Shown: in pieces, positions 10,057 to 28,791 of the stretch
Numbering within the stretch: the stretch's first letter is position 1
Layout: every line of letters begins with the position of its first letter
The notes under the pieces: model-generated
What the model saw: only the letters and a program-made list of their open reading frames with translations
Told to the model about the DNA's origin: nothing
Database searches by the model: none
Assembly (NCBI GenBank): GCA_001897305.1
Contig: MKSO01000001.1
Coordinates: 720,001-752,000 of the forward strand
DNA length: 32,000 bases
Direction of reading: 5' to 3'
Source of the DNA: Candidatus Saccharimonadota bacterium
GTDB lineage: Bacteria > Patescibacteriota > Saccharimonadia > Saccharimonadales > Saccharimonadaceae
Made by a program: the position numbers and the translations under genes

Positions 10057-10131
10057 TGGTGATCTCACGGAGAATCGAACTCCGATTGCCAGGATGAAAA
10101 CCTGGTGTCCTAACCGTTAGACGATGAGACC
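10057..10131 (-). tRNA. tRNA-Glu (anticodon UUC), CCA encoded
   Basis: The reverse complement reads GGTCTCA TC GTCT AACGGTTA GGAC A CCAGG TTTTCAT CCTGG CAAT CGGAG TTCGATT CTCCG TGAGATC A CCA. It folds by hand into a cloverleaf with anticodon TTC. Confidence 0.9.
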
Positions 10132-10143
10132 ATCAAAAGAACT

Positions 10144-10222
10144 GATCAAAAGCGCATGCACGTTTTTACCCGAAGTATTGTAACAAAAAATACCCCGTAT
10201 TACTAGAGGTATAGGACATTTT
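10144..10222 (+). repeat. possible degenerate third copy of the island-flanking repeat family
   Basis: It has the same block order as the copy at 11421-11535: GATCA (10144-10148), GCATG (10154-10158), TTGTAA (10178-10183), ATACC (10190-10194), TAGAGGTATAGG (10204-10215) and TTTT (10219-10222). The alignment was made by eye and includes indels. Confidence 0.35.
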
Positions 10223-10238
10223 ATGCTATTTTGCTCTT

Positions 10239-10278
10239 CCGTCGGAGCCTCGGCAGTTTCCTGCCGAGACCCCGACGG
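10239..10278 (-). terminator. GC-rich nested hairpin 8 nt after the stop of the minus-strand island operon (no U-tract)
   Basis: CCGTCGG agc CTCGGCAG tttc CTGCCGAG acc CCGACGG. The inner stem is a perfect 8 bp and the outer stem 7 bp. It coincides with the left composition boundary. Confidence 0.5.
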
Positions 10279-10285
10279 CGAGAGC

Positions 10286-10729
10286 CTACAGACGGCGCTG
10301 AGCTCGATAGCGCCGCGCACCCCCTGCCTTGGTGACGTACACACAGACATGATTGCGATCACCCGGACGCTGCATCTCGAGCGCTTGCGCAAGCCACGAC
10401 AAGGGCTTGAAGGTAAGCCCGAGCCGATAGGCGGCGAACGCAGCCAGCTGGAGGCCAGCGTCAGAGTCTCGATCCAAGCGCCTGAAGGCTTCCTCGATGA
10501 TCTCGACTTTACGAGCCACCTCCTGCTTCTCCTCGAGGTCCGACAGCTTGTCCCCCAGGCGAACCTCACGAACAAGTGGAGGCAACTCCCCTGCCACCTC
10601 CATCAGAACTTGCATAACCTCCTCGGATACGACGACGTTACAGCGCAGCTCGTCCGAAGTAGCTTCGGTGGGCATCTCGATCTGGTATTCGATCGTCTCA
10701 GCCCCCTGCGAAGGCAGCATGAGGCTCAT
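10286..10729 (-). CDS. hypothetical protein (147 aa), translationally coupled to the upstream gene
   Basis: The start MSLMLPSQGAETIEYQ... overlaps the upstream stop as ATGA (plus strand tcat at 10726-10729). Third codon positions are mostly G/C on this strand, and the composition is acidic and helical. The longer 192-aa ORF (to 10864) overlaps the upstream gene and is unlikely. No family recognised. Confidence 0.55.
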   Translation of the reverse strand: MSLMLPSQGAETIEYQIEMPTEATSDELRCNVVVSEEVMQVLMEVAGELPPLVREVRLGDKLSDLEEKQEVARKVEIIEEAFRRLDRDSDAGLQLAAFAAYRLGLTFKPLSWLAQALEMQRPGDRNHVCVYVTKAGGARRYRAQRRL

Positions 10730-11184
10730 GCCATCACCTCCATTCGGCGAAGCGTTCGAACTGTGCCCGTAATCGGTGCGTCTCGAGAGACGAGGTCTCG
10801 GAGATACTGCTCGCCCGCAGGCGTCACCTGAAACGACAGCCCTCCACCAGAACTGGCGGAGCACTGCACGCTCTTCACGAACTTGTTCGCGAGCATGTGA
10901 TCAACAACCCTGAAGGCAGCCGACCTCCTCCTGCGCACATTGCGCAAGCGATTCTTGTGGATGACCTTGTCGAGCACCCACCGCCTGAGCATCTTGATCG
11001 ATGGAAGCCGCAGCGGCTTCTCTCGATCGAGAAGCAAAGCAAGCGCTTGATCATGAATGGCTTTCGTCACCAGATCCAACTCCTTCACGGAATTGGATCG
11101 TGCGGTGGCTGCAGCATTCTGATTCCCCATTGGTACCATACTTCCTGTAGGTTCTCGTACACTCCTGAAGGAGCTGCGTCTCAT
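10726..11184 (-). CDS. hypothetical small basic protein with a winged-helix-like C-terminal half
   Basis: Maximal ORF of 152 aa. An internal ATG at 11130 (MGNQNAA...) lies 10 nt after AGGAAG and may be the true start. The segment VVDHMLANKFVKSVQ...LSFQVTPAGEQYLRDL resembles the recognition helix plus wing of MarR-type wHTH proteins. This is a weak, motif-level call. Confidence 0.55.
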   Translation of the reverse strand: MRRSSFRSVREPTGSMVPMGNQNAAATARSNSVKELDLVTKAIHDQALALLLDREKPLRLPSIKMLRRWVLDKVIHKNRLRNVRRRRSAAFRVVDHMLANKFVKSVQCSASSGGGLSFQVTPAGEQYLRDLVSRDAPITGTVRTLRRMEVMA

Positions 11185-11207
11185 GGGACGAAATTAAGTA
11201 CTCGTTG

Positions 11208-11236
11208 GTTATAGCATTATTGACAATTTAATTCAA
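11208..11236 (-). promoter_or_regulatory. candidate sigma70-type promoter for the minus-strand island operon
   Basis: On the minus strand it reads TTGAAT (plus 11231-11236), a 17-nt spacer, then TATAAC (plus 11208-11213). It lies about 20 nt upstream of the first ATG at 11184. Confidence 0.35.
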
Positions 11237-11239
11237 TAA
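11217..11239. promoter_or_regulatory. near-palindrome overlapping the divergent -35 elements (candidate operator)
   Basis: TTATTGA(C)AATT T AATTCAATAA has arms complementary except for one extra base. It overlaps TTGACA (11220-11225, plus strand) and the minus-strand -35. Confidence 0.3.
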
Positions 11240-11272
11240 TTATATTGTATTATTAACTAGATAAGCTCACGT

Positions 11273-11288
11273 ACGCTATATATAGCGT
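11273..11288. promoter_or_regulatory. perfect 16-bp palindrome in the AT-rich hub (candidate operator)
   Basis: ACGCTATATATAGCGT is identical to its own reverse complement. Confidence 0.3.
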
Positions 11289-11356
11289 CATTCATAAGTA
11301 TTTTAGGCAAAGTGACCATAAAGCTTGTGCTTTTGTTGTATATATTGTATAGAATA

Positions 11357-11385
11357 TTGACATTTTAAGCATTTTGTGATAAATT
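11357..11385 (+). promoter_or_regulatory. candidate strong promoter with an extended -10, driving the leader and the membrane-protein/lipoprotein operon
   Basis: TTGACA (11357-11362), a 17-nt spacer ending in TGa, then TAAATT (11380-11385). This matches the TGn extended -10 arrangement. Confidence 0.45.
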
Positions 11386-11391
11386 AAGAAC

Positions 11392-11656
11392 ATCATTCAC
11401 GGGTGCGGTGTGAGAGACCACGCCAGGGTGAGGAGGTCGTTAACAAGTCAGATCATTACAGTGCATGTCTGGATGCGCTTTATTTGCTTTTTGTAAATAC
11501 CGCGAAATCCGCGCACTGTAGAAGCTATAGATTTTCCTTACTCCTTTCACGGGACGGAAGGGCAGCCCACTATTATTGATAGTAAGCTGTCGTTCCGTCC
11601 CGACCGTCGGGACCTCGCCAAACCGGCGATTGTCCCTTCGGGGAAAGGAGCAAGAC
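11392..11656 (+). promoter_or_regulatory. long structured 5' leader with mutually exclusive hairpins
   Basis: Hairpin A pairs CGGGACGGAA (11550-11559) with TTCCGTCCCG (11593-11602). Hairpin B is GTCCCGA ccg TCGGGAC (11597-11613) and reuses the 3' arm of A. Further hairpins are TCGCC/GGCGA (11615-11629) and TCCC ttcg GGGA (11633-11644), the latter abutting the SD AAGGAG (11645-11650). Confidence 0.4.
11421..11535 (+). repeat. left copy of the diverged inverted repeat bracketing the plus-strand island operon
   Basis: Blocks are GCCAGGGT, GTTAAC (11439-11444), TCAGATCATTACA (11448-11460), TGCATGTC (11462-11469), TGGATGCGCT, AAATACC and GAAGCTATAGATTTT (11521-11535). They recur in the same order in the reverse complement of 13627-13785. 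Confidence 0.7.
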
Positions 11657-12070
11657 ATGTCCACCAGCGACACCACCATCAGCGCCGAAGAGCGAGAAAT
11701 CGCGAATCTGCTAAAGGCAGAACCGAGCAATGAAGTCCACACGGAGCCCTCTCACAAGGAGGCCCGCAAGGAGATGTGGCGGAACTACTTCCGCACGTTG
11801 TTCATCGTCTGGTTCGCCCAGTTCGTCACCGCCGTCATCTTCTTCATGATCGCTTACGCGAACGGATGGACGGACGGCTTCAACTACGGCTACAAGGATC
11901 CCAACGGACACATCGAGCCCTTCAACGGGGCAAAGATGTGGGAGGCGATCGGCATCATGACCCAGTGGGGAGTGGTAATCATCTTCGTACTGGCGTTCGG
12001 AGCGCTCGTCGCGCTCGCCATCCGGTGGGTCCCCAAGACGCACAAGCCCAAGACCGACAAGAAGCACTGA
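11657..12070 (+). CDS. hypothetical 2-TM membrane protein (137 aa) with a basic C-terminal tail
   Basis: ATG at 11657 lies 6 nt after AAGGAG. The tracked 164-aa ORF opens with TTG inside the leader and is unlikely. TM helices are FRTLFIVWFAQFVTAVIFFMIAY and WGVVIIFVLAFGALVALAI, and the tail is KTHKPKTDKKH. Third codon positions are G/C-rich. Confidence 0.7.
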   Translation: MSTSDTTISAEEREIANLLKAEPSNEVHTEPSHKEARKEMWRNYFRTLFIVWFAQFVTAVIFFMIAYANGWTDGFNYGYKDPNGHIEPFNGAKMWEAIGIMTQWGVVIIFVLAFGALVALAIRWVPKTHKPKTDKKH

Positions 12071-12089
12071 CACCGAGAGGAGGTGCGTC

Positions 12090-13577
12090 ATGCGACGCAT
12101 CAAAACCCTCAGCCTCGCCATCGTTCTTCTGATGTTCGGTGCTGTGTCCCTCGCGGGATGCAGTGCCTTCATCGGAGGGAGTGCGCAGGCTGACGACAGT
12201 GACACCGTCACTGTCACGCCCATCAACCTGTCCGACCAGACCGTTATCGACGGCCTGTGCGGCTCCGACCCGAACTCCTCGAACGAGGAGCTCCGCAACA
12301 AGAGCGCCACGCGCTACCTGGACGCGTTCCAGGCGGTCGTGGAAGATCTCAAGCGGTACGAAGACGGCGGCGCCCGACACGACAAGGTCGCGGAAATCCA
12401 GGCGTCCTGGGGGGTCAACCCCGAGGATCAGCCTGCTGTTGACACCGCCGTCGCCGCCCTCAAGGCGCGCGCCGGTGAGGTCTGTGGCAACACGCAGGAC
12501 GGCGCTACGACGCAGCTCTGGAACCAGGATGGTACCCGTACCTTCCTGGCGTCCGTCAACTCCACGGAGGTGACGGGTGTCGACTCCACCGCTGACGCCA
12601 GTGCACCGCCCGTGCTGGTTCTGGACGCGTCCAACAAGGGCGTCGAGGTGTTCAAGTCGTTCACCCAACTGCTGAACACGGCCGAACAGGCCGGGCACGC
12701 AGGACAGGTGTACATCGACTACATCAACGCCCACAAGGCCGACTTCGGTCCGAACTGGACGAACGGTTGGGAAGACGTCAAGAAGTTCGCCAAGACCGAG
12801 CAGGAGCAGAAGGTCGACACGCGTGCCGTGCAGGTATTGAACTGCCCGGCCGATGTGACCGAAGCAACCGCTCGTTCGATGGCGGCAGAGATCAAGGGAA
12901 TCGGCGAGTACGATGCCCAGCACATGGCTTTCCAGCGTGTGTCGGGCAACTTCGTCAACTCCCGCGATGTCGGCGTCTACGGCCAGCCGAACATCCAGCC
13001 GTTCACGCAGTCCAACTGCCAGATCCGTGTCAGCCTCGTCCCGATCGTCTACGACGCCTCGGGCAAGGCCATCGGGCTCGACAGCTCGGGCGTCGGCATC
13101 TTCGTCGACTGCGGCAACCCTCACTGGTGGATCCCTCCGACAGTGATCGTCTGGCAGTGCGCCACTTCCGAGTGCGCACCGCCGGCCGAGCAGGTCTGCC
13201 CGTGGAACCCCGCCCTGCCGGTGGGTTCACCGAACTGCAAGCCGCCGACACCGTCGGACGCCAAGGACAACAGGCTCACCCCGGACAACCCGGGATGGAC
13301 CCCCCGCGGCACCGACAACGGCGTGACCGACGGCCGTGAGTCGGTGCGTCAGCAAGAGTCGGGTGATACCCGAGGCAATGGTGGTCAACACCAGGTCGGT
13401 GGCAACACCGGTTCCGGTGACAACACCAGCAGTACGGGCACTGACGTCACCGTCGGAGGGTCCACCCCCGGCGGAGACAGCCCCACGGGCACCGTACAGG
13501 ACCCGGGCCTGGTGAAGGACGACAAGGGAGGAACGGAAGGCGCAACCTGCGTCCCCACTCCCCTCGTCAGCTGCTGA
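12090..13577 (+). CDS. secreted lipoprotein of unknown function (495 aa), Cys-rich with a Gly/Thr/Ser-rich C-terminal region
   Basis: The SD GGAGG is 6 nt upstream. The signal peptide carries a lipobox (MRRIKTLSLAIVLLMFGAVSLAG|C). Third-position G/C is strong in this frame only. There are many Cys residues (for example WQCATSECAPPAEQVCPWNP...NCKPP) and a low-complexity tail (GNTGSGDNTSSTGT...). No known domain recognised. Confidence 0.8.
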   Translation: MRRIKTLSLAIVLLMFGAVSLAGCSAFIGGSAQADDSDTVTVTPINLSDQTVIDGLCGSDPNSSNEELRNKSATRYLDAFQAVVEDLKRYEDGGARHDKVAEIQASWGVNPEDQPAVDTAVAALKARAGEVCGNTQDGATTQLWNQDGTRTFLASVNSTEVTGVDSTADASAPPVLVLDASNKGVEVFKSFTQLLNTAEQAGHAGQVYIDYINAHKADFGPNWTNGWEDVKKFAKTEQEQKVDTRAVQVLNCPADVTEATARSMAAEIKGIGEYDAQHMAFQRVSGNFVNSRDVGVYGQPNIQPFTQSNCQIRVSLVPIVYDASGKAIGLDSSGVGIFVDCGNPHWWIPPTVIVWQCATSECAPPAEQVCPWNPALPVGSPNCKPPTPSDAKDNRLTPDNPGWTPRGTDNGVTDGRESVRQQESGDTRGNGGQHQVGGNTGSGDNTSSTGTDVTVGGSTPGGDSPTGTVQDPGLVKDDKGGTEGATCVPTPLVSC

Positions 13578-13584
13578 ACCTCAA

Positions 13585-13615
13585 GTGGGCGGGTCGCTTC
13601 GCGCGACCCGCCCAC
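13585..13615 (+). terminator. 13-bp GC-rich hairpin after the lipoprotein gene (no U-tract)
   Basis: GTGGGCGGGTCGC ttcgc GCGACCCGCCCAC begins 8 nt after the stop. It marks the right composition boundary. Confidence 0.6.
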
Positions 13616-13626
13616 TCCGGCACAAC

Positions 13627-13785
13627 AAAATCTATAGCTTCATTACCTATGGAGCAGTATTCCGTATTTGAGTCCGCCTCACGGCAGATTCGTATGTTGA
13701 GTAGCGCTCCATAGGCTACTCCAAGTTTTATTGAGATGCACATAATTGTAATGATCTGATTTGATAATCGTTAACAACCCGGCAA
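13627..13785 (-). repeat. right (inverted) copy of the repeat bracketing the island operon
   Basis: The reverse complement contains GCCGGGTT, GTTAAC (13770-13775), TCAGATCATTACA (13747-13759), TGCATCTC (13733-13740), TGGAGCGCT, AAATACGG and GAAGCTATAGATTTT (13627-13641). It is about 45 nt longer than the left copy in the central part. Confidence 0.7.
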
Positions 13786-13850
13786 CAATGTTTTATATTT
13801 TATTAATTTTGATTTTTTCTGCGAGATAAATCAAGAAAAGGAGCAAGTAT

Positions 13851-15503
13851 ATGAGTAAACTTATGTCTCTCATTCGTCGTTCTCCAAAGCGCGTTTTCGC
13901 TCTTGTAGCAGTAGCTGCAGCTGCACTTATCGTGCCAGTTGCCGCTCTTGCATGGGGACCAGACCGACCAACATTTACTATGGAAAATCCTGCACCATAT
14001 GTAACATTTAACTCAATAACTAATAACGGTAAGGTTGGTGATGAGCGTAACTTCCTGCGCATTCGCGAATCAGGAACCGGTGAATACATTAACCAAGTTA
14101 ATTTCGAACCAGGCAAGGTGTACGACGTTTCTGTGTACTACCACAATAATGCTGCAACTCGCTTGAACGCAAGCGGCGAAGGTATTGCAAAAGATGCAAC
14201 TCTTAAGATTGAAATGCCTTACGTCATTAAAGCAGGTGTTAATGCCGCTTTAACAAGTACTATTTCTGCTAGCAATGCTAAGCCAACCTCAGTATGGGAT
14301 GAAGCATACGGTAAGAACAATACTAACGCTGAAATTGCTTTGCGATATGTCGCTGGCTCAGCTAAGTTTGTAAGTAACGGCGCTATTAACGGCCAAACAC
14401 TTCCAGACAGCCTATTCACTACTGGCGCAAAACTAGGTTTTGATAGCCAAAATGGTACCGTACCTGGTTGTAACGAATATTCAGGTTTTGTAAACTTCAA
14501 AATCCGTATCGACCAGCCTAACTACGAGGTTAAAAAGGTAGTGAGTACCGATGACGGTAAAACTTGGGTTGATAGTGTAAAAGCACAACCAGGTAGCACG
14601 GTAACATACGGTATTTCTTACCAAAACACCGGTACTAACCAGCAGGATGACGTTGTTGTACGTGACATGTTACCAGCTGGCGTAGCATATGTACCTGACT
14701 CAACTTACTTAATGAACTCTGTAACAAAAGGTAAATTCGAAAAAGCTTCCGATGGCATTACTACCGTAGGATACAATGCTGGTTCGTACCAATCAAAGGG
14801 TAATGTGTTCTTTAAGTTCAATGCTAAACTACCAAGCAAAGACCAACTAAAGTGTGGTACCAACACACTTGTAAACACTGCTCGCGTAAGCGTTAATGGT
14901 GGCTACAAAGAAGACACCGCTACTGTAACTATCGATAACGAATGTAAGCCAGTCGTAAAATACACCTGTGATGCCCTCGGCGTAACCGTTGTAGACCGTA
15001 CTCACTTTACATTTAACACTAAGTACACCGTACAGAACGCAACCTTTAAAAGTGTTACTTACGTTATTAAGAACGCAAACGGCAAGGTTGTTGACACCAA
15101 AACTTCTAACGGTACGTCTTTGAACTACACTCAAACAACTGTTGGCAAGTACACCGTACAAGCAACAGTTACCGTTACTGTTGATGGTACAACTAAGACA
15201 GTTACCAGCGACGCATGTAAGGCTTCATTCGAAGTACCTGCACAACCTGGAAACATTACTGTTTGTGAACTCTCAACTAAGAAAATCGTAACCATTAAGG
15301 AAAACCAGTTCGATGCTGCGAAGTACTCGAAGGACCTTAGCAAGTGTGCGGAGACACCAGTTCCACCGGTAACTCCACCTACCACACCACCTGAGCTTCC
15401 TCACACCGGTATGACCGAAAACATTGTTGCCATTACTGGTCTTGGTGCCCTGATTGCAAGCATCGCTTACTACGTTGCAAGCCGTCGCGCACTAAACCAA
15501 TAG
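13851..15503 (+). CDS. LPXTG-anchored surface protein with repeated beta-rich (DUF11/Ig-like) modules
   Basis: 550 aa with the SD AAGGAG upstream and a signal peptide (...VAALA|WG). The C-terminal sorting signal is LPHTG, a hydrophobic helix (IVAITGLGALIASIAYYVA) and SRR. There are repeated T/V/K-rich beta-strand segments with paired Cys. Confidence 0.85.
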   Translation: MSKLMSLIRRSPKRVFALVAVAAAALIVPVAALAWGPDRPTFTMENPAPYVTFNSITNNGKVGDERNFLRIRESGTGEYINQVNFEPGKVYDVSVYYHNNAATRLNASGEGIAKDATLKIEMPYVIKAGVNAALTSTISASNAKPTSVWDEAYGKNNTNAEIALRYVAGSAKFVSNGAINGQTLPDSLFTTGAKLGFDSQNGTVPGCNEYSGFVNFKIRIDQPNYEVKKVVSTDDGKTWVDSVKAQPGSTVTYGISYQNTGTNQQDDVVVRDMLPAGVAYVPDSTYLMNSVTKGKFEKASDGITTVGYNAGSYQSKGNVFFKFNAKLPSKDQLKCGTNTLVNTARVSVNGGYKEDTATVTIDNECKPVVKYTCDALGVTVVDRTHFTFNTKYTVQNATFKSVTYVIKNANGKVVDTKTSNGTSLNYTQTTVGKYTVQATVTVTVDGTTKTVTSDACKASFEVPAQPGNITVCELSTKKIVTIKENQFDAAKYSKDLSKCAETPVPPVTPPTTPPELPHTGMTENIVAITGLGALIASIAYYVASRRALNQ

Positions 15504-15550
15504 TCCGAGTCTGACCGCTCTTTCTAGAAGCGATCCGGCTTCCACCATAA

Positions 15551-15578
15551 CCCCACTCCCCTAACGAGTGGGGTTTTT
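15551..15578 (+). terminator. rho-independent terminator after the LPXTG gene
   Basis: CCCCACT cccctaacg AGTGGGG followed by TTTTT. Confidence 0.7.
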
Positions 15579-24165: not shown

Positions 24166-24699
24166 ATGACCCGCCGCGGCTTTACTATTGTCGAGCTTAT
24201 TATCACCATCACTATCATGGGCATTCTGTTAACATTGGCGGTTGTAAACCTTAACGCAACCCAAATTAGTTCACGTGATGTTGAGCGAAAGACTGATATT
24301 GAAACGATCGCAACAGCATTAGAAGCTTACTACAATAGCAACGATACGTCGCACTCTGGTGCTGCCGATTTGGCGGGGGGCTCATATCCGGCTACTATCA
24401 ATATCAGCAGTGATACGAATTTGAAAACCGCCCTGCCCGGCATTGACCCGCGAGCAATACGTGCTCCTGGGGTGGAAACAACCGACCCTAAAAGCCTTAC
24501 AGTGGCTACCAATAACGTCCAGACGACCGCCGGCGTATTACCCCAACCAACAATCAGCACGTACGTATACCAACCAATCAAAAAAGATAACAGCCTATGC
24601 ACGCAAATCGTAAACCAGGGTGATTGTCGCAAGTTTAATTTGTACTACAAACTCGAAGCAGATGGCGCTGTGTACAAAGTTATAAGCAAACACCAATAA
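24166..24699 (+). CDS. type IV pilin-like protein
   Basis: MTRRG|FTIVELIITITIMGILLTLAVV shows a prepilin cleavage/methylation motif. The globular part is variable and has a Cys pair near the C-terminus. Confidence 0.85.
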   Translation: MTRRGFTIVELIITITIMGILLTLAVVNLNATQISSRDVERKTDIETIATALEAYYNSNDTSHSGAADLAGGSYPATINISSDTNLKTALPGIDPRAIRAPGVETTDPKSLTVATNNVQTTAGVLPQPTISTYVYQPIKKDNSLCTQIVNQGDCRKFNLYYKLEADGAVYKVISKHQ

Positions 24700-24717
24700 G
24701 CAGGAACTGGCAGTAAT

Positions 24718-25212
24718 ATGACCACAACTAGTAGTATTCATTACAACAGAAAAAAGAGCGGCTTCACCATAGTTGAGCTTCTGGTTGTCATCGTTGTTAT
24801 TGCTATTCTGGCAACTATTACGATCGTGTCTTTTAGTAGTATCACAACGAAAGGCAATGACTCTTCCACAGAAGCGGCCGTAAATGCATTTAAGAAAAAA
24901 GCCGACTTATACACCAAAGACGGCCCTACCGGTGCGTATCCCATCGCAGCAACTGATCTTACTTCGGACACCACTAAAAGCTACTACCTAAGCGACTACA
25001 CCGTAACCTACGTTACGACTAATGCTTCACGTACCGTCAGTGCAAGTAATGGCACAAAAACTATTAATGTCCGTAAATGCTCGGGGTCGCTCACAAGCCA
25101 AGCTTCTATTACGGCTACAAACATTACTGGGTTGCAGATTATTTCTTGGGATTTTTCCGACAAAAACTACAACACAACAACCATCGGCACTGGCAACTGC
25201 CCAGCCGCCTAA
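24718..25212 (+). CDS. type IV pilin-like protein
   Basis: ...NRKKSG|FTIVELLVVIVVIAILATITIV, with C-terminal Cys residues (RKCSG...GNCPAA). Confidence 0.85.
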   Translation: MTTTSSIHYNRKKSGFTIVELLVVIVVIAILATITIVSFSSITTKGNDSSTEAAVNAFKKKADLYTKDGPTGAYPIAATDLTSDTTKSYYLSDYTVTYVTTNASRTVSASNGTKTINVRKCSGSLTSQASITATNITGLQIISWDFSDKNYNTTTIGTGNCPAA

Positions 25213-25326
25213 CCTACCCCTTTAGTTACCCTGTGGAAAAATGAGCATTTTGTTATTGCGCGGACAAAATTTATATAGTAGAGTAACAACATAAAGCATA
25301 ACCAATTATATAGGGGGCAACTCACA

Positions 25327-25896
25327 ATGAGTTTACAAAATATTAAAGCAAGTAACCGCGGTTTCACCATCGTCGAACTCTTGATCGTCGTTGTGGTTAT
25401 CGCAATCTTGGCTGCAATTACGATTATTTCGTATAACGGTATTACTAACCGCGCAAACTCAAGTTCTGCAGCTTCCAATGCAGAAACAGCACAAAAGGTC
25501 GCAGAGGGCTTTAATGCCGACTGTAGTCGATACCCAGCAAGCGTTACCGAATTCCGCAGTGGATGTACACCAGCACTGTCCGGCGTCGCTGGGCAAACAC
25601 CAGCTACTACATTGCCAACCGCTGTTACTGTGTTCCGTCCAGCCGCAGGAACAGGTACAGGCACTGCGCCTGCAACTGTTTCGACGGCAACTATTGCCGG
25701 TACAGGCACTGCGGGGCTTAACGCTGGAAACGGCACAAACGCCGTAGCCATCTTCATTACAGGTACGGCCGCTGCCCCAACTGGTGGCGTCGTAGTTACT
25801 TGGGACTACTCAACGGGTGCAGTACAAGCTCCTGCTAAATACACTTACTATGGTGCAGCGTCATCTGCATCGACGTTCATTCAAATTGGTTCATAA
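25327..25896 (+). CDS. type IV pilin-like protein with a Thr/Gly/Ala-rich low-complexity insert
   Basis: MSLQNIKASNRG|FTIVELLIVVVVIAILAAITII, followed by a repetitive AGTGTGTAPATVSTATIAGTGTAG tract. Confidence 0.85.
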   Translation: MSLQNIKASNRGFTIVELLIVVVVIAILAAITIISYNGITNRANSSSAASNAETAQKVAEGFNADCSRYPASVTEFRSGCTPALSGVAGQTPATTLPTAVTVFRPAAGTGTGTAPATVSTATIAGTGTAGLNAGNGTNAVAIFITGTAAAPTGGVVVTWDYSTGAVQAPAKYTYYGAASSASTFIQIGS

Positions 25897-27258: not shown

Positions 27259-28791
27259 ATGGAAACGAAGAATTACGCTGCAAAAATCGGTACACTTATT
27301 CAGGAAACACGCCAATCTAGAGGTATGACCCAGCAAGAACTGGCAACCGCCTTGGGCACTAGCCAAAGTGCTATTAACCGCATCGAGAAGGGTGGTCAAA
27401 ATATCAGCCTTGATATGTTGGCTCGTATCAGCGATGTTTTGTCAAGCCCCATTGTCAGTCTTAATCAGCCCGGTTCAATTACCTTTCGCGTGGAAGGTGG
27501 ACACAAGCTATCTGGTCATATTGTAACCAAAACCAGTAAAAATGCCGCCGTTGCCCTGCTATGTGCCTCTCTCTTAAATCGCGGCACCACAACCCTACGA
27601 AGCGTTGCGCGCATTGAAGAAGTAAATCGTATTATTGAAGTGCTCAATAGCATTGGTGTTAAAACCCGTTGGTTCAACGAAAGCGACCTGGAAATTACAC
27701 CACCAGCTCGCCTTAAGCTCGAAGCTATGGATATCGAGGCCGCTAAAAAAACCCGCAGCATTATTATGTTCCTCGGTCCGCTTTTGCATCAATATCGTCA
27801 GTTTGAACTTCCTTTTGCCGGTGGTTGTAGCTTAGGTGAACGCACCGTTGAGCCACACCTTGACGGCCTTAAACCCTTCGGCCTTGCCGTCGAAACAGTA
27901 ACAGGTAAGTACAAAGCCTCTACTAGCCCCCTAAAACCCGAGCGCACAATCGTTCTCTCTGAACGCGGTGACACAGTAACCGAAAACGTCCTTATGGCGG
28001 CAGCCCTCAATGACGGCACAACTATTATTCGCAACGCCAGCCCAAACTACATGGTGCAAGATTTGTGTTTCTACCTCGAAAAACTCGGCGTTCATATTGA
28101 AGGCATCGGCACAACCACCCTTACTGTTAAGGGCTTGCGCGATATCAATAAAAATGTTGAATACGCTCCTGCCGAAGACCCTATCGAAGTAATGAGTTTT
28201 ATTGCCGCGGCCATTGTAACGAAGTCAGAAATCACCATTGAGCGCGCGCCAATCGAGTTCCTCGAAATCGACCTTAAATTCCTCGAGAACATGGGCTTTG
28301 TGTATGAAGTCTCCGACGAATACACCGCCCGCAACGGCCGAACTCGCCTCGTGGACATTACCACCAAGCCAAGTACATTAACTGCTTCAGTCGATAAGAT
28401 CCACCCGATGCCATTCCCAGGCCTTAACATCGACAATCTCCCCTTCTTTGCGCTCATCGCAGCCACCGCTAAGGGCCGCACCCTCATTCACGACTGGGTA
28501 TATGAAAACCGTGCCATTTACTTAACCGAGCTGACAAAACTCAATGCCAAAGTTGAGCTTGTTGACCCGCACCGTATTTATGTGGAAGGTCCTACCAACT
28601 GGAAGCCAGCTGAAATAGTCACCCCACCAGCCCTACGCCCAGCCGTGGTCATTCTATTAGCCATGCTGGCCGCACCGGGCATTTCAACCCTTCGCAATGT
28701 CTATTCTATTAACCGTGGGTACGAGGACCTCGCCCGCCGCTTAAATAGCTTAGGCGCGAAAATTAGTGTGATTCGCGATATCACTGCCTAA
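27259..28791 (+). CDS. murA: XRE-type HTH domain fused to a MurA-like UDP-N-acetylglucosamine 1-carboxyvinyltransferase
   Basis: 510 aa. Residues about 5-65 form a Cro/C1 HTH (RGMTQQELATALGTSQSAINRIEKG). The remainder aligns by eye with E. coli MurA: FRVEGGHKLSGHI...SKNAA, the active-site loop FAGGCSLGERTVEPH with Cys retained, and C-terminal SINRGYEDLARRLNSLGAKI. Confidence 0.85.
   Translation: METKNYAAKIGTLIQETRQSRGMTQQELATALGTSQSAINRIEKGGQNISLDMLARISDVLSSPIVSLNQPGSITFRVEGGHKLSGHIVTKTSKNAAVALLCASLLNRGTTTLRSVARIEEVNRIIEVLNSIGVKTRWFNESDLEITPPARLKLEAMDIEAAKKTRSIIMFLGPLLHQYRQFELPFAGGCSLGERTVEPHLDGLKPFGLAVETVTGKYKASTSPLKPERTIVLSERGDTVTENVLMAAALNDGTTIIRNASPNYMVQDLCFYLEKLGVHIEGIGTTTLTVKGLRDINKNVEYAPAEDPIEVMSFIAAAIVTKSEITIERAPIEFLEIDLKFLENMGFVYEVSDEYTARNGRTRLVDITTKPSTLTASVDKIHPMPFPGLNIDNLPFFALIAATAKGRTLIHDWVYENRAIYLTELTKLNAKVELVDPHRIYVEGPTNWKPAEIVTPPALRPAVVILLAMLAAPGISTLRNVYSINRGYEDLARRLNSLGAKISVIRDITA

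Follow-up and report, generated by a model that had tools for sequence, protein, structure and literature searches.

Conserved inverted arms flank a replaceable gene cassette in Saccharibacteria and may pair as leader and trailer of its transcript

A pair of inverted repeats encloses a two-gene segment in the 32,000-nucleotide stretch of Saccharibacteria DNA analysed here (the window), and comparison of related loci indicates that these repeats are real, that they are conserved across Saccharibacteria and that they flank fast-changing genes. We put at about even the chance that the two arms, left (L) and right (R), are the leader and trailer strands of a long-range RNA helix within one sense transcript, which would close the cassette mRNA; this reading is drawn from comparative sequence analysis. 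The Saccharibacteria are ultra-small and live attached to other bacteria, with few known regulators and a surface variation that is poorly understood. The literature searched held no relevant prior description of such an arrangement in Saccharibacteria. The features of the locus, in order of position, are:

10057..10131, minus strand: tRNA-Glu (UUC), the conserved left anchor of the variable region (ARAGORN and Rfam)
10232..11271, minus strand: variable block on the left, GC-rich (55-60%) and holding two unassigned ORFs, 10286-10729 and 10726-11139
11357..11385, plus strand: promoter P_L, TTGACA-17-TAAATT with TG before the -10, just outside the left arm
11396..11432, plus strand: leader hairpin P1, loop GUGAGAG, from the RNAalifold consensus, with pairs changed on both sides
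11435..11446, plus strand: boxA-like 12-mer GGTCGTTAACAA, conserved in L copies
11445..11469, plus strand: left arm, strand of the proposed outer helix, core AAGTCAGATCATTACA and tail GTGCATGTC
11470..11520, plus strand: hairpin region particular to the left arm and absent from R; 11460-11479 was flagged as terminator-like by program
11521..11535, plus strand: left arm, strand of the proposed inner helix, GAAGCTATAGATTTT, a perfect 15-mer
11536..11656, plus strand: cassette 5′ UTR, GC-rich, with a long hairpin at 11550-11602
11657..12070, plus strand: cassette gene 1, a predicted membrane protein of 137 aa with no family match
12090..13577, plus strand: cassette gene 2, a lipoprotein of 495 aa with a LAGC lipobox and a low-complexity C-terminal tail, GC3 0.82
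13584..13616, plus strand: GC hairpin with a perfect 14-bp stem, which follows the stop codon and lacks a U tract
13627..13641, plus strand: right arm, strand of the proposed inner helix, AAAATCTATAGCTTC
13642..13732, plus strand: R-specific structured insert, CCTATGGAGC...GCTCCATAGG stem with an internal hairpin
13733..13762, plus strand: right arm, strand of the proposed outer helix, tail GAGATGCAC, 5-nt bulge ATAAT and core TGTAATGATCTGATTT
13768..13777, plus strand: second sense-strand TCGTTAACAA, overlapping the -35 of the downstream promoter
13771..13799, plus strand: promoter-like site for the DUF11/LPXTG gene, TTAACA-17-TATATT
13851..15503, plus strand: DUF11-repeat LPXTG surface protein, conserved as the neighbour on the right; a canonical terminator (15549-15575) comes after it

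The original prediction described 11421-11535 and 13627-13785 as diverged inverted copies that share an ordered series of blocks, and every block it listed is present in its place, among them a perfect 13-mer (11448-11460 and 13747-13759) and a perfect 15-mer (11521-11535 and 13627-13641). A shuffled-sequence control bore out the match: L scored 45.5 in local alignment against the reverse complement of R, far above chance, compared with 17.3 ± 2.6 (maximum 32.5) for 1000 dinucleotide shuffles and 32 for the best of 522 other sequence windows. The hexamer CTATAG occurs at just two sites in the 32 kb, 11525 and 13632, and these are the two edges of the cassette. The right copy, predicted to be about 45 nt the longer, exceeds the left by 44 nt because of the R-specific insert at 13642-13732. 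Common to both arms are the core (AARTCAGATYATTACA and GTGCATGTC) and the inner GCTATAG block; the stretches that are not shared form hairpins particular to each arm, and in both arms the hairpins show compensatory changes. One of the predicted blocks, GTTAAC, has to be withdrawn as an inverted match. The block is palindromic, and its flanks give TCGTTAACAA on the plus strand at 11437 as well as at 13768, which makes it a direct repeat; the pairs expected of it do not hold, column 4/113 being never paired.

As predicted, the promoter stands outside L, and what the repeats enclose is a leader, two genes and a hairpin. The locus is syntenic across the genus: the tRNA-Glu gene adjoins pyruvate kinase and holds the same position in most relatives, P_L is kept in relatives together with its spacer, and the stretch 11317-11469 is 83-92% identical to relatives, compared with 75-79% for housekeeping genes. 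Homology to relatives then ends at 11469-11488 and restarts at 13727-13745. Between these points gene content varies among species whose pyruvate kinases are 85-90% identical, and mosaic tracts distinguish near-identical strains, while the right cassette is occupied in all relatives. The enclosed genes differ from species to species, are anomalously GC-rich and match no family. These comparisons indicate that the segment really is a discrete, replaceable cassette; its exact edges are marked by the conserved arms, and from one species to another the genes inside are replaced or diverge very quickly.

The left variable block also has the foreign-looking GC of the cassette and carries no L/R motif. 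It is absent from a related strain (L097), in which the tRNA flank is joined to the promoter region via about 25 nt, and its ORFs gave no family matches. Searches of the island and array proteins against Pfam, NCBIfam, PHROGs and PADLOC gave nothing significant. Relatives of the lipoprotein numbered eight among 5.8 billion proteins, all of them unnamed; no donor lineage for it was found in the homologue search, and an AlphaFold model built from the eight sequences (pLDDT 46.5) was unusable. A GGAAG-CAGC...GCUG-UCC element of the cassette 5′ UTR is also found in cassettes of other genomes. Rfam, at gathering and at permissive thresholds, detected tRNAs only in the window and four related loci, and rRNA genes were absent from the window and the loci; 16S probing of every locus and walks of 10 kb outward from each end of the window gave none. 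The prediction that no recombinase is encoded in the window was correct, and neither recombinase nor transposase genes were found there or within 10 kb on either side.

Copies in other genomes, proposed earlier as a check, proved to be widespread, and their patterns of change carry the argument for pairing. In 39 of the 80 related Saccharibacteria loci, one plus copy and one minus copy lie around a segment of 1.3-3 kb, and about 95 arm-bracketed units were classified overall. Matched changes are seen in both arms at seven core positions. An L core agrees with its own R at 14.68 of 16 positions on average, compared with 13.75 ± 0.09 for the R arms of other genomes, and none of 2000 shuffles was as high. 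Across 20 genomes 88.5% of cells were paired, as against about 35% with partners slid, and 18 pairs were altered on both sides; compensatory inner-helix pairs were seen in 12 of 16 cases, in the flanks of CTATAG, although here pairing is inflated because the inner blocks were chosen beforehand as the best-matching CTATAG-like pairs. In the window itself, co-folding of L with plus-strand R gained -30 kcal/mol, compared with -6.7 ± 2.5 kcal/mol for shuffled R.

The most direct comparison comes from an array of eight units in one genome (L199), where L arms scored a mean of 40.8 against their own R and 28.1 against non-cognate R. The variants TTAAA, TTATG and a tail ATATCG are each private to both arms of a single unit, and the partner of R_n is L_n rather than the adjoining L_n+1. 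Such unit-specific matching speaks against both a local palindrome and a protein-binding site common to the units. Between successive array units just 24-25 nt lie from the end of one R core to the next L core, a gap too small for a promoter, so that R, lying between co-transcribed genes, is probably transcribed in the sense direction.

Mismatches within the paired arms lean towards wobble when read on the sense strand: 71 were G-U-type and 26 A-C-type in 50 unique pairs, and 34 and 4, respectively, in 20 array units. This bias comes mostly from a few positions, core position 3 and tail position 6; core position 11 has a recurrent A-C mismatch in nine unique pairs, and in the inner helix the counts (9 G-U, 14 A-C) reveal no bias. 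Assignment of the R internal hairpins by MFE and hand-counted wobbles favoured neither strand. A bulge of 1-8 nt separates core and tail of R in all genomes, and such arm-specific differences (position 3 G in one arm and A in the other; bulges in R only) persist across the phylum. The L tail is also able to pair locally inside L, and is thus a competitor for the long-range helix.

Some further observations concern how the arms are read. A C-to-T and A-to-G bias on the coding strand could mimic a wobble signal, and co-variation of inverted repeats is also expected from DNA-level constraints. Neither arm has a sharply defined outer end. A minus-strand promoter in R (TTAACG-18-TACAAT) was considered and dropped as not conserved, the sequences of relatives having spacers of 16-20 nt and variable -10 boxes, and so was a small ORF in R or L, which is not conserved either.

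L lies in the transcribed leader, which is conserved and follows a conserved promoter. From MAFFT alignments, whose 3′ part was misaligned, the RNAalifold consensus recovered the 5′ hairpin alone, and the leader RNA folded better in the plus sense in 35 of 41 genomes. The position of P1 is that of boxB in rrn leaders. In the boxA-like 12-mer that follows, position frequencies over 108 unique L copies are G96, C86, TT100, A92, A100, C92 and AA100. The sequence GGTCGTTAACAA agrees with GYTCTTTAANA at 8 of 10 specified positions, this consensus being gamma-proteobacterial (PMC5725501). By analogy, the element could hold the leader to the polymerase and suppress termination, and it is a candidate site for NusB/NusE. 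In 67 of 126 R copies a related TTAAYAA follows the core at a distance of 6-10 nt. At the other end of the operon, the structure at 13584-13616 that the original prediction called a terminator is a hairpin without a U tract, in contrast to the canonical hairpin-plus-U terminators found elsewhere in the genome, for example at 15549-15575. For this reason we infer read-through past 13616, and the hairpin is probably a 3′ stabiliser and not a terminator.

Under the leader–trailer reading, transcription would begin at P_L (11357-11385) and the polymerase would cross a leader made up of the hairpin, the boxA-like element and an invariant unpaired stretch of about 35 nt, before passing through the GC-rich 5′ UTR, both genes and the U-less hairpin into R. 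There R would pair with L, forming from core and tail an outer helix of about 25 bp, bulged on the R strand; a second pairing, the inner helix, would comprise the 12-15 bp of the GCTATAG block, and the hairpins belonging to each arm would be kept between the two helices. By analogy with the leader–trailer helices of rRNA operons, the structure would set the mRNA ends or protect them. It would be long enough to serve as a substrate for RNase III, which may process it if the helix forms in vivo, perhaps with a part for Nus factors, and it would insulate the cassette from its neighbours.

Three mechanisms had been offered by the original prediction: a cassette mobilised in trans, an invertible segment, and opposed copies of one structured RNA or MITE-like family. 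None of these is the best fit, and the comparative data favour pairing of the arms within the transcript, which was not among them. Mobilisation in trans sits badly with a locus that is syntenic across the genus, and nothing indicates a transposase. A wider form of the idea, which we think unlikely, takes the arms as borders of the cassette at the DNA level, either recombination anchors or the TIRs of a non-autonomous element, with cassettes swapped via transformation and homologous recombination or by an unlinked enzyme; the inverted symmetry would then be an enzyme requirement or a historical accident. Homology among relatives breaks exactly at core and tail on both sides, and the turnover of cassette genes despite 85-90% pyruvate kinase identity, the mosaic tracts and the foreign-looking GC of both variable blocks all speak for it. 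However, no transposase or recombinase lies within the window or 10 kb of it, there is one syntenic locus per genome, homologous exchange does not need inverted symmetry, and the co-variation of L_n with R_n, the freely co-varying inner helix and the G-U bias are left unexplained. Borders of this kind are compatible with the RNA model. For inversion, a recombinase encoded elsewhere would flip 11461-13746 and cut the operon off from P_L. The geometry suits, with inverted repeats around the genes and a promoter outside, but we regard this as very improbable: the assemblies compared, about 47 of this strain from many samples, show a single orientation, and 126 L-type copies in other genomes combine the promoter with L-outer and L-inner features as against one odd copy. 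This sole promoter-linked copy with an R-type inner side (L042) looks like an insertion rather than an inversion. Moreover, the arm-specific differences are kept across the phylum, the perfect cores are just 13-16 bp with variable spacers, and no recombinase is found nearby.

A single structured small RNA or MITE-like family, present as two opposed copies, would explain why both arms contain hairpins with compensatory changes, yet this is extremely improbable. R has neither the promoter nor the 5′ hairpin of L, the minus-strand promoter leading into R is not conserved, the internal structures of the arms differ, and there is neither an Rfam match nor a dispersed family: only two copies occur in 52 kb around the window, near-complete contigs of 0.5-0.7 Mb hold one locus each in the part of the collection scanned, and the motif was absent from viral contigs. 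It is also very unlikely that the arms are paired operators, a site of about 27 bp set in opposite orientations at both ends for one DNA-binding regulator that would control the cassette together with the DUF11 gene. In favour are the strong sequence conservation of the core and the place of R just upstream of the DUF11 promoter, but units of one genome differ in the variants that they carry and match in cis, core and tail are separated by anything from 0 to 8 nt, the inner helix is free to vary with compensating changes, and the site is not palindromic. A role in trans seems improbable, though less so: the R-containing 3′ RNA would pair with the leaders of other transcripts, from its own or sister units, and open or close the leader hairpin to give expression feedback. 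The L tail lies within a local hairpin that is followed by AUUUUG in short-form leaders, R is complementary to exactly that strand, and the arms of different array units are alike. Within one genome, arms nevertheless fit their cognate partners better than non-cognate ones, which indicates pairing in cis, and long-form leaders do not conserve the U tract that follows the leader hairpin.

The closest likeness of the proposed leader–trailer pairing is to rRNA operons, for which a leader–trailer helix, a boxB-boxA-boxC leader and a model of the rrn antitermination complex have been described (PMC10250234, PMC5725501). Both have co-varying complementary sequences about 2 kb apart around a gene, in both the leader strand is highly conserved and yet pairing is what is maintained, and leader-specific helices interrupt the long helix. 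The order of hairpin, boxA-like element and leader strand is the same, and a second boxA-like element lies past the trailer, as in the 16S–23S spacer. The cassette differs in enclosing two protein-coding ORFs without a family and no rRNA, in its partial boxA match, its putative NusB/NusE site and putative RNase III cleavage, and in the occurrence of its units in tandem arrays with changing gene content; no core sequence was found beside a 16S gene among the loci retrieved. In the icaR mRNA of Staphylococcus aureus the 3′ UTR pairs with the 5′ leader and masks the ribosome-binding site (PMC3868564). There too the complementarity is between the leader and a 3′ untranslated sequence of one mRNA, over a length sufficient for RNase III. 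In the window, however, about 190 nt separate the paired leader segment (11445-11535) from the start codon downstream, the ribosome-binding site (Shine-Dalgarno and start codon at about 11645-11659) is not masked, and the bracket is modular and reused on many unrelated genes across the phylum.

Similarities to DNA-level systems are more superficial. Invertons of the hin, fimS and cwpV type likewise have inverted repeats around a segment beside a fixed promoter, but here no second orientation was seen and no invertase is near, and the repeats are long, interrupted, arm-specific and co-varying within each unit. Integron attC cassettes form arrays of short, mostly promoterless genes of no known function, with imperfect palindromic junctions downstream of a promoter, much as seen here. 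The repeats described here bracket each gene rather than come after it, R_n is the partner of L_n across the gene, there is no R′/R″ core organisation, and no IntI-type integrase was found in the window or the array loci inspected. An attC-like local palindrome is not supported, as R_n co-varies with L_n and not with L_n+1. MITEs and composite transposons share the inverted terminal sequences around cargo that has no transposase gene, but differ in that each genome here has a single locus, fixed in its syntenic position, with a promoter and leader outside the repeat on one side only.

A broader proposal, possible but doubtful, is that the arms form a phylum-wide modular expression bracket with the logic of an rRNA operon (promoter, hairpin, boxA-like antitermination signal and gene-specific helix) around fast-changing surface proteins and other uncharacterised proteins, singly or in co-transcribed arrays. 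The same arms would mark off the unit of exchange between genomes, and the bracketed DNA of Microsaccharimonas would have been driven to 60-70% GC. If this is true, a bracket acting at the RNA level and fitting any gene would be a new organising principle for the expression of hypervariable genes, and a rare use of rRNA-style leader–trailer pairing for mRNAs; if the boxA-like element is functional, Nus-type antitermination would extend to such cassettes. The arms could be tried as a portable element to stabilise or insulate mRNAs. The motif itself is a simple genomic marker for variable loci of this kind in metagenomes. The GC excess of the bracketed genes is sharp and persistent, and points either to a private pool of GC-rich genes or to a local bias of mutation or conversion.

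The paired copies that bracket the cassette, the left arm L (11421-11535) and the right arm R (13627-13785), are real, conserved and co-evolving. The perfect 13-mer and 15-mer cores of the original prediction are both exact, and the full-arm inverted alignment scores 45.5, compared with 17.3 ± 2.6 (maximum 32.5) in 1000 shuffles and at most 32 for any other window in this control. CTATAG occurs at two sites in the 32 kb, both at the cassette edges. A promoter does lie just outside the left copy, directly 5′ of L (TTGACA-17-TAAATT). Two details of the prediction had to be revised: GTTAAC, taken for an inverted block, is a palindrome that in context belongs to TCGTTAACAA, which is repeated in direct orientation on the plus strand, and the terminator placed after the lipoprotein gene is a hairpin without a U tract, canonical terminators being used elsewhere in the genome.

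The same DNA was found on 0.9 Mb contigs of GCA_017307155.1 and in several metagenomes. The host is a Microsaccharimonas-like member of Candidatus Saccharibacteria, and the nearest relatives of its pyruvate kinase are in Saccharimonadales genome bins. With pyruvate kinase as anchor we collected 80 related loci, nearly all of which keep the layout from tRNA-Glu to the DUF11 gene listed here.

Features of the region, from left to right
Leftmost, minus strand: pyruvate kinase gene
10057-10131, minus strand: tRNA-Glu
10232-11271: left GC-rich block, two ORFs on the minus strand
Between the two GC-rich blocks: AT-rich stretch of ~330 nt
Next: GC-rich block of 2.1 kb, 58-68% GC against ~46% for the genome
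Between the 2.1 kb block and the DUF11 gene: AT-rich stretch
Right end: DUF11/LPXTG surface-protein gene

In 22 of 23 loci examined, the AT-rich stretch between the two GC-rich blocks and the sequence preceding the DUF11 gene showed a significant inverted match to each other (z 4-12). The common core is AARTCRGATYRTYAYA followed by GTGCATGTC, which 39 of the 80 loci contain exactly once on each strand. Further copies exist in other genomes, an exact-pattern scan recovering >119 additional stretches in metagenome contigs and a scan of viral contigs none. Each near-complete contig of 0.5-0.7 Mb carries one locus, and the 52 kb around the window hold only the two arms, so that a MITE-like or otherwise dispersed family is unlikely. 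Neither Rfam nor the literature searched gave a description of the module.

The housekeeping genes of the window are 75-79% identical to those of relatives at the DNA level, and the promoter with L (11317-11469/88) is 83-92% identical. From ~11490 to 13727 there is no alignment at all, and it restarts at 13727-13745, the tail and core of R. Homology thus stops at L and resumes at the R tail and core, so that the arms precisely delimit a stretch which is replaced or diverges beyond recognition. The bracketed gene pair varies by species (for example membrane protein with lipoprotein, or coiled-coil-like with membrane-anchored protein) and has a GC3 of 0.7-0.89. Family libraries gave no matches to the cassette proteins, and a search of 5.8 billion proteins gave no more than eight relatives of the lipoprotein. 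L094, a strain 98-99% identical elsewhere, carries a 1.7 kb tract (window 13238-14906) that is ~70% identical or unalignable and extends from the C-terminal end of the lipoprotein across R into the N-terminus of DUF11, with the paired blocks of R still kept; this tract is a recombination mosaic. The left GC-rich block (10232-11271), whose two minus-strand ORFs are likewise family-less, is absent from the related strain L097, where ~25 nt (131-155) lie between the flank of tRNA-Glu and the promoter region; the right edge of the block adjoins a perfect 16-nt palindrome, ACGCTATATATAGCGT (11273-11288). Many independent Logan assemblies break at 10101-10103, within tRNA-Glu, and one Logan contig family breaks at 11372, within the promoter (contigs concerned: L004, L007, L008, L009, L010 and L094-L099), which points to alternative versions of these borders among the strains in the samples.

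The two arms differ in composition. The conserved promoter accompanies L in every case, and L runs from a 5′ hairpin through G-R-W-C-R-TTAACAA, the core, a directly abutting tail and an arm-specific hairpin to the GCTATAG block, after which the GC-rich cassette 5′ UTR begins. R has neither promoter nor 5′ hairpin; it has its own internal hairpins, a core and tail set 1-8 extra bases apart in all copies, its GCTATAG block toward the cassette and, in about half of copies, a second TTAACAA on its 3′ side.

Core variants such as GATT, TCGG, TTATA, TTTCA, TCACA and GATTG appear in both arms within a given genome. Across the paired blocks of a 20-genome alignment, standard pairs occupy 88.5% of cells compared with ~35% when partners are slid, and 18 pairs have both partners changed. 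Of the 16 inner-helix pairs, 12 are compensatory, and variants such as GAAGCTATAGATTTT, TTTGCTATAGGT and TTTGTATAGATTA each have their partner in their own genome, with the caveat that the inner blocks were selected as the best-matching CTATAG-like pair. The strongest evidence for co-evolution is the matching within tandem units of low-GC relatives, of which L144 has three, between rpsI and a tRNA-synthetase gene, and L199 has eight. For every L of the L199 array its own R is the best match in that genome (mean score 40.8, against 28.1 for non-cognate pairs), and private variants (TTAAA, TTATG, tail ATATCG) are each found in L and R alike of one unit. A shared protein-binding site or operator is thus unlikely, and an attC-like local palindrome can be set aside, since each R matches the L across its gene rather than with the adjacent L of the next unit. 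Easy gene conversion is disfavoured, the blocks being too short and interrupted. Selection for L:R complementarity within the single unit is the simplest explanation.

The best-supported reading, to which we give an even chance, is that a leader-trailer RNA helix brackets each variable cassette. L and R would pair within the sense transcript, and the joint fold is predicted to contain two helices between the arms, separated by arm-specific hairpins. Co-folding of the window arms gains -30 kcal/mol compared with -6.7 ± 2.5 for shuffled R; the L tail is also capable of local pairing. Bulges in R vary in length, and segments not common to both arms fold alone. The leader folds are more stable in the sense (plus) strand in 35 of 41 genomes, and L is probably part of the transcribed leader. 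In L199 only 24-25 nt, with no promoter, separate the R core end from the next L core, which argues that R is transcribed in the sense direction within a polycistronic RNA. L:R mismatches are mostly of G-U rather than A-C type in the sense strand (71 vs 26 in 50 unique pairs; 34 vs 4 in 20 array units), a bias that rests on few positions, is countered by a recurrent A-C mismatch at core position 11, is absent in the inner helix and could owe something to strand-specific mutation. A DNA-level role for the arms as cassette borders, as a rival or as a compatible second function, seems to us much less probable. The proposal that the segment is invertible, connecting or disconnecting the operon from the outside promoter, is unlikely, at least for frequent inversion: ~47 assemblies of the window strain (99.97-100% identity across the region) have one orientation, 126 retrieved copies combine the promoter with L-outer and L-inner features, the single promoter-linked copy with an R-like inner side resembles an insertion, and arm-specific differences persist phylum-wide. 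The window lacks a recombinase gene, as first noted, and so does the DNA within 10 kb on either side.

The conserved 12-mer of L, GGTCGTTAACAA, fits 10 of 12 positions of the E. coli rrn boxA. It matches 8 of the 10 specified positions of boxA GYTCTTTAANA, a gamma-proteobacterial consensus that may not be the host's (PMC5725501). The rRNA operon is the closest analogue, a resemblance by which we claim no membership: its 16S and 23S flanks form co-varying leader-trailer helices, the conserved strand boxC lies shortly downstream of boxA and the hairpin boxB, and in the current model boxA tethers the leader to the polymerase until the trailer has emerged (PMC10250234). In L, hairpin, 12-mer and leader strand follow one another in the same way, although the bracketed genes here code for proteins. 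Pairing of 5′ and 3′ UTRs is known in single mRNAs such as icaR, where it masks the ribosome-binding site (PMC3868564); the predicted L:R pairing in the window does not.

Both variable blocks (10132-11300 and 11536-13620) have 55-70% GC and a GC3 of 0.7-0.89 in every Microsaccharimonas relative (L012-L089), compared with 42-51% GC for the genomes, and between species their proteins can hardly be aligned. The same module is AT-rich where it occurs in other lineages of Saccharibacteria (L144, L199). A conserved 5′ UTR hairpin inside the cassettes is itself GC-enriched in the Microsaccharimonas lineage, a hint that the enrichment arose in situ or that the cassettes come from a private GC-rich pool. 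This hairpin (11550-11602; form CUCCuuuc-GGRRG-CAGC...GCUG-YYUCC-GA) is kept across GC-rich and AT-rich cassettes with unrelated genes (leaders of L144 and L014) and has no match in Rfam. Just past the right end of the window (L220, 5092-9970), eight small clustered ORFs of ~40% GC, with neither Pfam matches nor an L/R motif, form a second family-less block.

Directly 5′ of the Shine-Dalgarno sequence of the DUF11/LPXTG gene lies another 5′ UTR hairpin (13809-13834), TTGATTn-TCTGCGAGA-nAATCAA, whose loop is invariant and whose stem co-varies in relatives (e.g., TTGATGTA...TGACATCAA and TTGATCCG...CAGGATCAA); we regard it as a candidate cis-regulatory RNA. DATMTU010000174.1, a contig assigned to Dongiaceae (Alphaproteobacteria), carries the Saccharibacteria module of pyruvate kinase, tRNA-Glu and L with 89% protein identity and is probably mis-binned. 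Elsewhere in the window, 27259-28791 encodes a 510-aa protein with an N-terminal Cro/C1-type HTH and an EPSP-synthase-fold (MurA/AroA-like) enzyme domain, and three consecutive genes at 24166-25896 have N-terminal methylation (type IV pilin-like) motifs and may be tied to the pili or competence machinery known in Saccharibacteria.
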